From the NCBI GenBank assembly GCA_026415135.1, contig JAOAHS010000006.1:29779-93778 (forward strand): a stretch of 64,000 nt of DNA, given 5' to 3'. This DNA is from Calditerrivibrio sp. (GTDB taxonomy: Bacteria > Chrysiogenota > Deferribacteres > Deferribacterales > Calditerrivibrionaceae). The first letter of the stretch is position 1. Each line of letters starts with the position of its first letter. The notes under the pieces are model-generated. The model searched no databases. It was not told the DNA's origin and was given only the letters and a program-made list of their open reading frames with translations. Shown here piece after piece: positions 26,341 through 54,192 of this stretch. A program made the translations under genes and the position numbers.

Positions 26341-26414
26341 TCGGGGCGGAGGGATTTGAACCCCCGACCCTCGGTTCCCAAGACCGATGCGCTACCAAGC
26401 TGCGCTACGCCCCG
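26341..26414 (-). tRNA. tRNA-Pro (anticodon TGG)
   Basis: Revcomp CGGGGCG-TA-GCGC-AGCTTGGTA-GCGC-A-TCGGT-CTTGGGA-ACCGA-GGGTC-GGGGG-TTCAAAT-CCCTC-CGCCCCG-A; loop CUUGGGA gives anticodon UGG with G37. Confidence 0.85.
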
Positions 26415-33562: not shown

Positions 33563-34099
33563 ATGGGTTACGGAGAAAAAATTAGAGATATAAGAAAAAG
33601 ATTAGGTATGACGCTTGAAGATGTATCTATCAAGACTGGCTTTACAAAAAGCTTTATTAGTCAAATAGAAAATGGTAAAAATTCACCATCTATAGCATCT
33701 TTAAAGAAGATCTGTTTTGCTCTGGGTATATCTATAAGTGAGCTTTTTGAGGATGAAAGAAATATTGTTTTTAAGTTTGAGAAAGAGGATTATAAAGTGT
33801 TGAAAAACAAGAGTATGGATATATACTTTCTGGCTTCTAAATATGCAAACAGAAAGATTGAACCTCTTATTTTGGAATTGGAGCCACATTCTGAGACAGG
33901 TACTGAGTTTTATCACCATACTGGTGAGGAATTTGGTTATGTTTTAGAAGGTACTGTGAATGTGGTAATTGGTACTGAAGAGTATAATCTCAAGGCTGGT
34001 GAATCTATATATTTCAGTTCCAATTTACCCCATAAGATCAGAAATAAAACAGATAAGAAAGCAAGAGCCTTTTGGGTAGGTACACCACCAAGTTTTTAG
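33563..34099 (+). CDS. XRE-family HTH + cupin-domain transcriptional regulator
   Basis: HTH_3 (IRKRLGMTLEDVSIKTGFTKSFISQIENGK) plus C-terminal cupin (GEEFGYVLEGT...GESIYFSSNLPHKIRN). Confidence 0.8.
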   Translation: MGYGEKIRDIRKRLGMTLEDVSIKTGFTKSFISQIENGKNSPSIASLKKICFALGISISELFEDERNIVFKFEKEDYKVLKNKSMDIYFLASKYANRKIEPLILELEPHSETGTEFYHHTGEEFGYVLEGTVNVVIGTEEYNLKAGESIYFSSNLPHKIRNKTDKKARAFWVGTPPSF

Positions 34100-34101
34100 T
34101 A

Positions 34102-34130
34102 TTGAAATTTTTTAAAATATAGTTTATATT
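34102..34130 (+). promoter_or_regulatory. Sigma70-like promoter for panBCD leader (TTGAAA-17-TATATT)
   Basis: TTGAAA 34102-34107, 17-nt spacer, TATATT 34125-34130, immediately after the XRE-cupin stop. Confidence 0.4.
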
Positions 34131-34137
34131 AAAACAG

Positions 34138-34233
34138 TTGCTTGGATCCCTGCTGGGACTGAGACGGCTAACAGGATAGAATAAGGTGAGTACTATGGGC
34201 CTTTCGGTTAGCCGGAAGGCCTTTTTGTTTAGC
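34138..34233 (+). ncRNA. Structured 5' leader of panB with intrinsic terminator (candidate riboswitch/attenuator; possibly pan-motif-like)
   Basis: 10-bp stem GGCCUUUCGG/CCGGAAGGCC (34198-34221, one U-G) + UUUUUGUUU, ending 15 nt before panB SD; upstream ACGGCUAAC (34164-34172) can pair with GUUAGCC of the terminator as an antiterminator. Confidence 0.4.
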
Positions 34234-34248
34234 TGGATAGGAGAAAAT

Positions 34249-35061
34249 ATGAGCAAATATGCTGAAATAAAAAAGCTTACTGTGAACCACTTAAAAGGTA
34301 TGAAAAATGTAGATAAAATTGTATGCCTTACTGCCTACGATTATACTTCTGCTAAAATTCTGGACGAAGCTGGGGTTGATCTTATTCTTGTGGGTGATTC
34401 ACTTGGTATGGTGGTAGCAGGGTATGAAAATACTCTACCAGTTACGCTTGATCAGCTTATACTTCATTGTAAATATGTTAAGAATGGTTCAAAAAGAGCT
34501 TTTCTTGTTGCAGATATGCCCTTTGGTTCCTATCAAGTTTCAGAAGAAGAAGCTTTGAAGAATTGTATAAGAGTGATAAAGGAGACAGGTTTTGATGCAG
34601 TAAAGATTGAAGGTGGGGTCGATATAGCTTCAATAATTAGAAAACTCAACAAGACAGGTATCAATGTAATGGGCCATATAGGATTGATGCCCCAACTGGT
34701 TAATACAATGGGAGGGTACAAAATTCAGGGTAGATACAATGAAGATCGGTTGTTGGAGGATGCTTTGGCACTGGAAGAAGCAGGTGTTTTTGCTATAGTC
34801 TTAGAAGGGATAATCGAAAAAGTATCTCAAAAGATCACAGAACGTGTCAAAGTGCCAACGATAGGTATAGGTTCTGGGAGATATTGTGATGGACAGATAT
34901 TGGTATTCCATGATATATTTGGGTTGTATGATGATAAAACACCTAAGTTTGTTAAAAAGTATTTAAACGGTAGAGATCTCTTTTTTGAAGCTACAAAAAA
35001 ATATATTAAAGAAACAAAAGAAAATATTTTTCCAGCTATAGAAAATGTTTTTCTGGAGTAG
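34249..35061 (+). CDS. panB: 3-methyl-2-oxobutanoate hydroxymethyltransferase
   Basis: Start reassigned to MSKYAEIKKL (SD GGAGAA); LTAYDY, VGDSLGMV, ADMPFGSY motifs; the track's upstream extension reads through the terminator hairpin. Confidence 0.9.
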   Translation: MSKYAEIKKLTVNHLKGMKNVDKIVCLTAYDYTSAKILDEAGVDLILVGDSLGMVVAGYENTLPVTLDQLILHCKYVKNGSKRAFLVADMPFGSYQVSEEEALKNCIRVIKETGFDAVKIEGGVDIASIIRKLNKTGINVMGHIGLMPQLVNTMGGYKIQGRYNEDRLLEDALALEEAGVFAIVLEGIIEKVSQKITERVKVPTIGIGSGRYCDGQILVFHDIFGLYDDKTPKFVKKYLNGRDLFFEATKKYIKETKENIFPAIENVFLE

Positions 35062-35067
35062 GTTTTT

Positions 35068-35922
35068 ATGGATATTATTAGAGAGATAGTGGATATAAAA
35101 AACTGTATTTCAACCTTGAAAAAAACAGGCAAAAGTATAGGTTTTGTTCCAACAATGGGTTACCTTCATGAAGGGCATATAAGTCTCGTTCGTGCTTCAA
35201 AAAAGGAAAATAATATAACTGTGGTAAGTATTTTTGTAAATCCTACTCAGTTCGGTCCTAATGAAGATCTTGAAAGATATCCGAGGGATTTTGAAAGGGA
35301 TGAATATTTGTTGAGAAAGGAAGGTGTGGATATAGTTTTTTATCCATCTGTAGAAGAGATATACCCTAAAGGTTATAGTACCTATATAGATGTTGAAAGA
35401 ATAACTGGGCATCTTTGTGGACCCAAAAGACCTGGACATTTCAGGGGTGTAGCAACCGTAGTATGTAAACTTTTTAATATTGTAAAACCAGATAGGGCAT
35501 ATTTTGGTCTTAAAGATTATCAGCAGGTTTTGGTTATTAAAAGAATGGTTGCAGATCTTAATATGGATGTACAGATCATTGCTATGCCCATCATACGTGA
35601 GGTAGATGGTCTTGCTATGAGTTCAAGAAATGTTTATTTGAGTGGTGAAGAGAGAGAGTCTGCGTTATCATTATTTAGGTCTTTTACAATCGTAGATAAG
35701 GCGATAACAGAGGGTATTAGAGATTCTAAGATCATTAAAAAAATGGTTTCCGATTTCATCCTCTCACACCCTTTCACTAAGATCGATTATGTTGAAATTG
35801 TAGATCCAAACACATTGGAGCATATAGATATAATTGATAGAGATTTTTTAGTCGCTTTAGCAGTTTTTGTTAATAAAACAAGATTAATAGATAATAAAAT
35901 ATTTGAGGTGAAGCATGTTTAG
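35068..35922 (+). CDS. panC: Pantoate--beta-alanine ligase
   Basis: [20 protein letters not shown]-type motif, [13 protein letters not shown], 284 aa. Confidence 0.9.
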
Positions 35923-36274
35923 ATCCATGTTCAAAGCTAAAATCCATAGAGCTACTGTTACAGATGCAGATTTAAATTATGAAGGAAGTATAACTATTGA
36001 CGAAGACCTTCTGGATGCCTCTGGGATACTACCTTTTGAAAAAGTAGATATATACAATATTACCAATGGGGCAAGGTTTTCTACTTATACCATTGTGGGT
36101 AAAAGAGGTTCAGGGGAGATATGTTTGAATGGTGCAGCAGCCAGGCTGGTGCAAAAAGGTGACTTAGTGATAATTGTCTCTTATGGACTCTATAGTGAAG
36201 AGGAGTTAAGAAACCATAAGCCTGTTGTTGTGCATGTAGATAGTAATAATAAAATTATAAAAGTAACAGAATAA
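35915..36274 (+). CDS. panD: Aspartate 1-decarboxylase
   Basis: [29 protein letters not shown] pyruvoyl-processing site (G-S); 119 aa. Confidence 0.9.
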
Positions 36275-36292
36275 ATTATAGAGATTTGTGTT

Positions 36293-37168
36293 TTGGCATA
36301 TCTATTCTTGATTGGAGCTGCACTATTTTGGTCAGGGAACTTTGTTTTAAGTAGAGGCATAAATAATATTATACCGCCTGTAAGTCTTGGTTTTTGGAGA
36401 TGGGTTTTAGCTGGTGTGATTCTTTTACCTTTTTCCTATAAATATTTGATCAGGGATTGTGAAATAATAAAAAGTAACTTTAGATATTTAAATCTCTTGG
36501 CGTTTTTGGGAGTGACATGTTTTAATCCTCTTATATATGTTGCAGTTCATTATACCACAGCGATAAACGCAGTATTAGTAAATTCCTTTGTACCTATATT
36601 AATCCTCGTTATTTCCCTTTTCATGTACAAGGAAGCGCCGCATTTAAATCAGATCTTTGGGATTATTTTTTCGATGGTAGGTATTACTGTTATAATGTTA
36701 AAGGGTGATTTAAACAGTATCTATAGTTTTAAGTTTAACATTGGTGATATTTTGGTTTTTTTAGCTGCCTTTACGTGGGCTTTGTATACTGTTTTGTTAA
36801 AAAAGCTACCTAAGGATATTCATCCCATTGCTTTTCTTCAAATAATCATTTTCTTAGGGCTTTTATATATGTTTCCTTTTTATATTTTGGAGTATATTAC
36901 TAAAGGGGGGTTTGTACTTGAGGTAAAAACTGCACTGAGTATCCTTTATGTTGCACTTTTTGCTTCAGTTTTCGCTTTTATAATGTGGAATCGAGCTGTA
37001 AAAGAGATTGGAGCGAATAGAGCAGGACCCTTTGTTCATCTTATGCCAGTTTTTGGAACTATTCTTGCAATTGTTTTTTTAGGGGAAAAACTCTATATTT
37101 ACCACATTGTTGGAATTTTTTTGGTGTTTGTTGGTATATTTTTAGCTAATAAAGTTCCTGGTAAATAA
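36293..37168 (+). CDS. DMT-superfamily (EamA-type) transporter, 10 TM
   Basis: Two EamA-like halves, 291 aa, uniformly hydrophobic with short loops. Confidence 0.7.
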   Translation: MAYLFLIGAALFWSGNFVLSRGINNIIPPVSLGFWRWVLAGVILLPFSYKYLIRDCEIIKSNFRYLNLLAFLGVTCFNPLIYVAVHYTTAINAVLVNSFVPILILVISLFMYKEAPHLNQIFGIIFSMVGITVIMLKGDLNSIYSFKFNIGDILVFLAAFTWALYTVLLKKLPKDIHPIAFLQIIIFLGLLYMFPFYILEYITKGGFVLEVKTALSILYVALFASVFAFIMWNRAVKEIGANRAGPFVHLMPVFGTILAIVFLGEKLYIYHIVGIFLVFVGIFLANKVPGK

Positions 37169-54118: not shown

Positions 54119-54192
54119 TCGGGGCGACTGGATTTGAACCAGCGACCACACCCACCCCAAAGGTGTACGCTACCAGGCTGCGCCACGCCCCG
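54119..54192 (-). tRNA. tRNA-Pro (anticodon GGG)
   Basis: Revcomp CGGGGCG-TG-GCGC-AGCCTGGTA-GCGT-A-CACCT-TTGGGGT-GGGTG-TGGTC-GCTGG-TTCAAAT-CCAGT-CGCCCCG-A; anticodon loop UUGGGGU gives GGG with G37. Confidence 0.8.

Follow-up and report, generated by a model that had tools for sequence, protein, structure and literature searches.

The leader of the pantothenate synthesis operon panB-panC-panD in a metagenome-assembled genome (MAG) of Calditerrivibrio sp., phylum Deferribacterota, probably functions as a transcription attenuator, in which a single hairpin of the pan motif acts together with an intrinsic terminator and a competing antiterminator and the operon is turned off by an effector. The DNA analyzed is a 64-kb stretch of this MAG, called the window in the following. 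Its hairpin is a single-copy pan motif of the RF01749 family, and the terminator behind it belongs to the pan element; that the leader switches, in which direction it does so and that an effector exists is what we infer. The pan motif family itself is known already, and the element in the window is an ordinary member of it; the added value lies in a family-wide model of the expression platform, i.e., of the antiterminator. Little is known about how gene expression is controlled in the synthesis of pantothenate (vitamin B5, the precursor of coenzyme A, CoA), and the pan motif, known since 2010, is still an orphan.

The single pan hairpin and its distribution

A reading made earlier from the sequence only had considered the leader as a possible instance of the pan motif described by Weinberg et al. 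(PMC2864571). This assignment held, with RF01749 ranking first on the leader, tandem orthologues passing the threshold of the family and a single-hairpin model placing its best match in the window at this site. In a permissive Rfam scan of the leader, pan was the top match with 28.6 bits (E 0.003 for that search); this stays below the gathering score of the two-hairpin model (36.2 bits, an operational cut-off and no biological definition), because the Rfam model expects two hairpins. The second of these matches 34139-34168, where both bulged adenosines fall into their positions. The first one was placed by the model on 34073-34087 and was rejected, as this segment encodes the C-terminus of the upstream gene product (FWVGTPPSF*), lies 5' of the promoter and would have a 2-nt loop; its synonymous sites vary in relatives without keeping the pairs. 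Likewise, weak matches of PyrR, DLEU2, WsnRNA46 and U7 on the leader were discarded, all of them being far under their own thresholds. At curated thresholds, the Rfam scan reported no family at its gathering score near the leader. Three panB loci of relatives (L031, L032, and L034; such labels denote fetched panB loci of Deferribacterota relatives and metagenome contigs) carry an additional upstream hairpin, i.e., a tandem, and score 45.6-49 bits with RF01749, above 36.2. These loci were taken from graded Deferribacterota relatives via the protein database and contig look-ups, while a contig search with the PanB of the window returned only Rhizobiales at 46-47% identity and was useless for leader comparison.

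The single-hairpin covariance model, named R1, was built from 28 distinct second-hairpin sequences of the published seed (PMC2864571, Additional file 5), so as to judge the homology without the two-hairpin model and without sequences of our own choice. In these, 92.8% of the cells are paired and 8/11 pairs show changes on both sides, compared with 33-48% of paired cells after sliding the partner. Searched with filters off on both strands of the window (128 kb), R1 found its top match at 34138-34171 (19.2 bits, E ~0.016), followed by the next one at 12.3 bits, and the orthologous hairpin was the top match in each relative (20.9-32.8 bits). All 11 modelled pairs form in the window, including two U-G pairs of the basal helix (G34137-C34168, U34138-G34167, U34139-G34166, G34140-C34165), which is continued by a middle stem (34141-34145/34159-34163) and an inner stem (34147-34150/34155-34158) closed by the loop 34151-34154. 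The bulged adenosines A34146 on the 5' side and A34164 on the 3' side both match the bulge positions of the Rfam model and of R1. In the seed alignment, these two bulged adenosines and their flanking pairs are the most conserved positions, with the loop being variable.

A tandem arrangement, which is described for most pan RNAs but is no requirement, was not found in the window, where R1 has a single match; the -10 box lies 7 nt 5' of the hairpin and leaves no space for a second hairpin in the transcript. The hairpin ends 80 nt before the start codon of panB, with panC and panD coming next. According to the original description, delta-proteobacterial pan RNAs are typically single, and the searches were biased to tandem copies (PMC2864571). 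Since single copies are thus published and searches favour tandem ones, the hairpin of the window is filed as a single-copy pan motif.

The sequence GCTTGGATCC...GGACYGAGAC was present at the equivalent position in all of the fetched Deferribacterota relatives except Mucispirillum. The panB-panC locus of Mucispirillum schaedleri (L163/L164) has no pan hairpin, no terminator and no gene of the helix-turn-helix (HTH)-cupin type that precedes the leader in the window, and no panD was called beside panC; accordingly, the element is not universal in the phylum. Beyond the relatives, a scan of metagenome contigs for the exact pattern of the invariant core yielded at least 120 contigs. Among the matches listed, 107 contigs have at least 400 nt downstream; in 96 of these, the core GCUUGGAUCC...GGACYGAGAC is followed on its own strand by panB, panC or panD, and the PanB proteins of these contigs are 42-57% identical to that of the window. 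Only 2/20 other loci with this hairpin 5' of pan genes, again among the matches listed, reach the RF01749 threshold. Single-hairpin pan elements are thus widespread and mostly missed at the curated threshold of Rfam, whose pan entry is said to have originally covered Firmicutes, Chloroflexi and delta-proteobacteria, with Deferribacterota not among them.

Terminator and proposed competing antiterminator

The leader ends in a strong terminator with a UUAG loop, as had been described in the sequence-only reading. It folds alone at -18.6 kcal/mol, with the arm GGCCUUUCGG (34198-34207) pairing with CCGGAAGGCC (34212-34221), 7 G-C pairs among the 11 and a loop of 4 nt. As in a conditional terminator, this G+C-rich stem-loop with its U-tract stands between the promoter and the first gene. 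Its stem GCCUUYCGG...CCGGAAGGC is found again behind pan hairpins of distant lineages: a terminator is found 3' of the hairpin in 88/126 unique leaders, and the stem GCCUUC(C/U)...GAAGGC or a near variant of it appears across lineages, the window included. With one detector applied to both groups, 45/55 terminators of pan leaders carried CCUU[CU] in their 5' arm, compared with 2/23 ordinary terminators of the same contigs (Fisher p = 1.4e-9). Moreover, GCCUUYCGG occurs as a stem once in the 64-kb window, in which eight other terminator-like hairpins are unrelated in sequence. The possibility that the GCCUUCCGG-type stem is simply the ordinary terminator of these genomes is ruled out by this single occurrence and by the 45/55 versus 2/23 comparison. 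The terminator therefore belongs to the pan element. Deferribacter desulfuricans (L030) has kept it despite a divergent gene upstream.

Denitrovibrio (L035/L036) and L165 retain the pan hairpin, and no terminator follows it; instead, the ribosome-binding site (RBS) is covered by a hairpin, CCUC...GGAGG or UCCGUA...UACGGAGG. This suggests a translational version of the pan switch; regulated leaders typically have expression platforms that can be exchanged in this way. A further terminator of D. desulfuricans, on the minus strand of L030 (2189-2260), belongs to the divergent pyrR-pyrB-pyrC operon, which stands behind its own terminator and RBS. Its stem AGCCUUCUGG...CCGGAAGGCU resembles that of pan leaders, which is probably a coincidence.

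Many leaders contain GAGAC-GGAAGG directly past the hairpin. The box GGAAGG complements CCUUCC in the 5' arm of the terminator and is repeated in the 3' arm; its first two G's are basal pairs of the pan hairpin as well. Basal pair 1 is paired in 40/45 unique contexts, with C-G, U-G, A-U, U-A, and G-U all occurring. As the 5' arm of the terminator is complementary to the pan 3' strand together with the box, an alternative antiterminator can be drawn. The duplex of the pan 3' strand and the ten next bases with the leader's own 5' arm and loop has a median energy of -15.0 kcal/mol, compared with -7.1 kcal/mol for the same duplex with ordinary terminators (Mann-Whitney p = 2e-10). In a permutation test, the box also paired more favourably with the arm of its own leader than with those of other pan leaders (-9.70 versus -8.23 +/- 0.23 kcal/mol, 0/5000 permutations).

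Nascent folds, i.e., unconstrained minimum free energy (MFE) folds of the transcript before the 3' arm of the terminator exists, pair the 5' arm with the box in 41/55 leaders, and in 35 of those 41 the pan core remains intact and the basal pairs alone open. Blocking the complete pan 5' strand, by which the antiterminator state was defined at first, overstated its cost, as most leaders open basal pairs only; the nascent fold was used in its place. In L027, L030, and L037, the antiterminator is the nascent MFE fold already at 37°C. Additionally, the flanks of the Weinberg alignment were looked up in six genomes whose sequences were not selected by us. Five of them (B. subtilis, G. kaustophilus, D. 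hafniense, G. metallireducens, and G. uraniireducens) show box-arm pairing at -12.3 to -15.9 kcal/mol. The B. subtilis leader folds into the antiterminator as a nascent transcript and into pan hairpin plus terminator at full length. Terminators are marked in the pan alignment file of 2010, and the accessible text of that publication does not discuss terminator or antiterminator (PMC2864571). In the open-access literature searched, no description of a pan expression platform or effector was found.

In the window, the strands of the proposed antiterminator (34157-34169 and 34198-34209) can form 12 bp at -15.5 kcal/mol as calculated with RNAduplex. The register is kept in L026, L027, L028, L159, L161, L030, and L037, and 90.4% of the cells in the alignment of ten Deferribacterota leaders are pairable, versus 23-62% with the partner slid. 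The conservation of the leader in relatives, which the earlier reading had made a test of its proposal, was borne out by the same ten leaders from several genera: pan and terminator stems are almost invariant, and the linker of ~35 nt and the loops vary. Within the linker of the window, AAGGU (34183-34187) can weakly pair with GCCUU (34199-34203), as seen in the nascent fold at 37°C.

At the other end of the leader, the sigma-70-like promoter TTGAAA-17-TATATT noticed right after the upstream gene is present at 34102-34130 and begins 3 nt past the stop codon of the HTH-cupin gene. By itself, the match is not above chance, with 16 sites found in a consensus scan of 4 kb and 18.1 expected from shuffles. 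In all Deferribacterota relatives read, a -35/-10 pair lies 7-10 nt 5' of the first hairpin, the loci with this matching distance being L026, L028, L030, L031, L034, L035, L037, and L159. The predicted transcription start is at about 34136-34137, which gives a leader of ~112 nt; this folds more stably than shuffles (z = -2.9). A gap of 9 nt separates the U-tract from the RBS, leaving no room for a promoter downstream of the terminator, in agreement with the first description.

Proposed switch and competing explanations

In the attenuator proposed here, transcription would start at about 34137 and the pan hairpin (34137-34168) would be the first structure made. Without effector, 34157-34169 would capture 34198-34209 and block the terminator, so that the polymerase reads into panBCD. 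A putative effector would hold the pan hairpin closed, which would leave the 5' arm free, allow the terminator to form and stop transcription 18 nt before panB. The effector would likely contact both of the conserved bulged adenosines as well as the basal helix or flanking pairs. The pan hairpin would thus act as an anti-antiterminator, resulting in an end-product-type repression of pantothenate synthesis.

Whether the effector is a protein or a metabolite is judged about equally likely. In the 2010 study, a dimeric protein was suggested, and in-line probing of a Geobacter pan RNA gave no response to 1 mM pantothenate, CoA or beta-alanine (PMC2864571 and its Additional file 1). The G. metallireducens construct probed at that time ends with GCGCCUCCGGAA, which is the 5' arm of its terminator, and is predicted to be misfolded, with the arm invading the pan hairpin (-32.9 kcal/mol versus -26.5 kcal/mol with the arm blocked). 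With this end and this predicted misfold, the negative of 2010 is not a strong one, and the choice of construct ends may have impaired the published ligand test. It is accordingly conceivable, if rather doubtful, that pan is an OFF riboswitch which senses a metabolite and that its ligand escaped detection in 2010; candidate ligands would be intermediates of the pantothenate/CoA pathway, e.g., pantoate, ketopantoate or 4'-phosphopantetheine. The rule that the box pairs with the terminator would then set the end of the aptamer and hence indicate which constructs and termination assays would reveal a ligand. As the model fits the tractable B. subtilis too, the question of what pan RNAs sense becomes more directly testable.

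Several observations weigh against the proposed attenuator. The window has the lowest R1 score among its relatives (19.2 bits) and, in place of the GGAAGG-type box of many leaders, contains GGCU. Within Deferribacterota, the antiterminator is backed by conservation and shows no compensatory changes. At 37°C, the pan state of the window is favoured over the antiterminator state by ~4.5 kcal/mol, and the balance tips to the antiterminator only at higher temperature: at 55°C, which we take to be a plausible growth temperature for the genus Calditerrivibrio, with thermophily of this MAG being assumed, the nascent MFE fold is the antiterminator (-8.9 kcal/mol) and the complete transcript still folds into pan hairpin plus terminator. 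Among the genomes of the Weinberg alignment, P. propionicus fits the rule of box and arm poorly (-9.6 kcal/mol). The control set of ordinary terminators was small (n = 23), and the permutation test of box and arm ignores relatedness and the base composition of lineages. Finally, three obvious ligands gave no signal in the in-line probing of 2010.

The same parts could be operated with reversed logic, termination being the default and an effector of pantothenate/CoA scarcity opening the hairpin or stabilising the antiterminator. Such an ON switch would agree with the full-length MFE fold, which is always pan plus terminator, and with the higher stability of the pan state over the full antiterminator in 53/55 leaders at 37°C (median +7.2 kcal/mol with the whole 5' strand blocked). 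Nevertheless, the antiterminator of most leaders costs the basal 2-3 pairs only and forms in 41/55 of the unconstrained nascent folds; biosynthetic operons usually use an OFF design, and conservation across phyla is seen at those nucleotides that shape the folded hairpin, i.e., the bulged adenosines and flanking pairs, so that it is the folded form that appears to be recognised. The reversed logic is therefore regarded as unlikely. An improbable explanation as well is a leader without any switch, in which a constitutive, leaky terminator keeps the vitamin pathway low and ends the transcripts of the HTH-cupin gene, with the pan hairpin being independent of it as a 5' stabiliser or a site affecting translation or decay. 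No effector is known, the predicted transcript begins with the hairpin, and the terminator would serve the HTH-cupin gene, as none lies between this gene and the leader. A generic terminator would need neither the constraint on its stem across phyla nor complementarity to the pan 3' strand and box, however; the terminator is kept in L030 despite the divergent upstream gene, and L035 and L165 exchange it for an RBS-covering hairpin while keeping the pan hairpin.

Two further explanations carry still less weight. The sequence-only reading had proposed the same architecture with another antiterminator, formed by ACGGCUAAC (34164-34172) and GUUAGCC(G) (34207-34214), i.e., the loop and the start of the 3' arm of the terminator. 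The window does contain this pairing (-13.1 kcal/mol), and L026 and L028 have it unchanged; its UAAC/GUUA part is seen in the nascent fold at 37°C, and L037 shows a loosely analogous GCAAA/UUUGC complementarity. Still, it is restricted to these three leaders. L027, L159, and L161 have lost it, though they are no more distant from the window than L026 and L028 are (72-74% PanB identity), and it is absent from L030, L031, and L034, too. Its five distal pairs are broken in about half of the leaders, with counts indistinguishable from shuffles. Moreover, it requires the 3' arm of the terminator, which emerges only at a time when the competing 5' arm, directly next to it, is already available, and it departs from the family-wide rule of the box pairing with the 5' arm. 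As the operative antiterminator it is thus very unlikely. It is barely credible that the inverted repeat is no RNA element at all and serves as a DNA operator of the HTH-cupin transcription factor. The regulator gene stands immediately upstream in most Deferribacterota loci and the DNA of the hairpin contains the palindrome GGATCC, but the hairpin is kept in L030 and in at least 120 metagenome pan loci listed, from all of which this gene is absent. Conserved G-U pairs and two asymmetric bulges are sensible only in RNA, and the element is strand-specific relative to the pan genes and sits inside the transcript, 3' of the -10 box. As a general pan effector, the HTH-cupin neighbour was rejected for its absence from all non-Deferribacterota pan loci listed.

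Genomic context and comparison with known systems

The features of the leader and its surroundings are compiled in Table 1. The PanB of the window is 100% identical to an entry of the protein database that is named Calditerrivibrio sp. The HTH-cupin gene and panB are separated by a spacer of 149 nt, which holds the whole leader.

Table 1. Coordinates of the pan leader, the operon and the upstream gene in the window.
Feature	Position	Strand	Basis or remark
HTH_3 + Cupin_2 regulator gene upstream of the leader	33563-34099	+	Pfam, NCBIfam; context only, not shown as part of the element
Sigma-70-like promoter: -35 TTGAAA 34102-34107, 17-nt spacer, -10 TATATT 34125-34130	34102-34130	+	consensus scan
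Pan-motif hairpin, single copy	34137-34168	+	RF01749 second hairpin; single-hairpin model R1
Proposed antiterminator, upstream strand GACUGAGA[C]GGCU = pan 3' strand + 4-nt box GGCU	34157-34169	+	RNAduplex
Variable linker	34170-34196	+	unconserved in alignment
Intrinsic terminator: 11-bp stem 34197-34207/34212-34222, loop UUAG 34208-34211, U-tract UUUUUGUUU 34222-34230	34197-34230	+	
Proposed antiterminator, downstream strand GGCCUUUCGGUU = terminator 5' arm + first loop bases	34198-34209	+	
panB RBS GGAG 34240-34243 and start ATG 34249-34251	34240-34251	+	sequence
panB	34249-35061	+	Pfam Pantoate_transf; match from residue 9 of 270-aa product
panC	35068-35922	+	Pfam Pantoate_ligase
panD	35915-36274	+	Pfam Asp_decarbox
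EamA-family transporter gene	36293-37168	+	Pfam EamA
Controlled operon panB-panC-panD-EamA	34249-37168	+	Pfam

The product of the HTH-cupin gene (178 aa) is PuuR-like, and the gene is found directly 5' of panB in most Deferribacterota genera. It stands next to panB in the window, L026-L028, L031-L037, L159-L162, and L165, and is absent from D. desulfuricans, Mucispirillum and all of the at least 120 metagenome pan loci listed. Through this regulator, panBCD may be under a second form of control that is specific to the lineage. Between its gene and the pan leader no terminator was found; consequently, transcripts of this gene would meet the terminator of the pan leader, too.

Upstream of the panB start, the reading frame stays open across the terminator, with GTG at 34186 and ATG at 34195 (34186-34248). 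That these codons begin a leader peptide or lengthen PanB at its N-terminus was discarded, the stretch being in frame, yet unconserved (L026 lacks the ATG) and crossing the terminator. In L027 (2501) and L161 (1501), the called PanB starts fall within the leader, giving products of 300 and 304 aa; these long calls are probably mis-annotated N-termini. Elsewhere in the window, tRNA genes at 1015-1088, 26341-26414, and 54119-54192 (minus strand) are the sole Rfam matches at curated thresholds.

Those metagenome contigs in which the pan core precedes genes other than panBCD mostly lead into Rossmann-like/DUF2520 genes, HxlB-like SIS genes and, in one case, a substrate-binding protein gene. The HxlB-like SIS gene (6-phospho-3-hexuloisomerase family, TIGR03127, 184 bits) follows in L041, L052, L081, and L126, and in L052 and L081 the pan hairpin directly abuts the RBS AAGGAGG. 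Rossmann-like and DUF2520 genes follow in L042, L063, L102, L111, L140, and L149; DUF2520 proteins are ketopantoate reductase candidates. In L121, the hairpin stands before a gene for a periplasmic binding protein (Phosphonate-bd), which might be part of a transporter of pantothenate or a precursor. In the soil-type contigs L043, L054, L061, L075, and L127, a deoxynucleoside-kinase-like open reading frame from ~700 nt upstream runs into the pan hairpin and ends inside it. Its conserved C-terminus ...PLGS is encoded by CCGCTTGGATCC, so that the 5' strand of the RNA element doubles as coding sequence.

The element shares with the published pan motif (RF01749; PMC2864571) the stem with two conserved bulged adenosines, the core GGAUC...GAC.G.GAC and the location in the 5' untranslated region of a panB-panC-panD operon. 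It differs from the consensus by its single instead of tandem hairpin, by GGCU rather than a GAAGG-like trailing box and by its occurrence in Deferribacterota. A second point of comparison is the guanidine-II (mini-ykkC) RNA, which likewise consists of very small, highly conserved hairpins, often in tandem, that are followed by a terminator or an RBS-covering hairpin. These tandem small hairpins were initially suspected of binding a protein. In contrast to guanidine-II, pan is without a known ligand, and recognition apparently takes place at the bulged adenosines of the stem and not at the variable loop. The PyrR-dependent attenuators of pyr operons (RF00515) show the same three tiers of a binding hairpin acting as anti-antiterminator, an antiterminator and a terminator, and there the stabilised, effector-bound form represses a biosynthetic operon, as is proposed for pan. 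No PyrR-like protein is known for pan, and the RF00515 match on the leader is not significant (20.9 bits versus a gathering score of 54, E 0.79, mostly on the terminator). By analogy, the pan leader would work in the manner of a PyrR-type or OFF-riboswitch attenuator.

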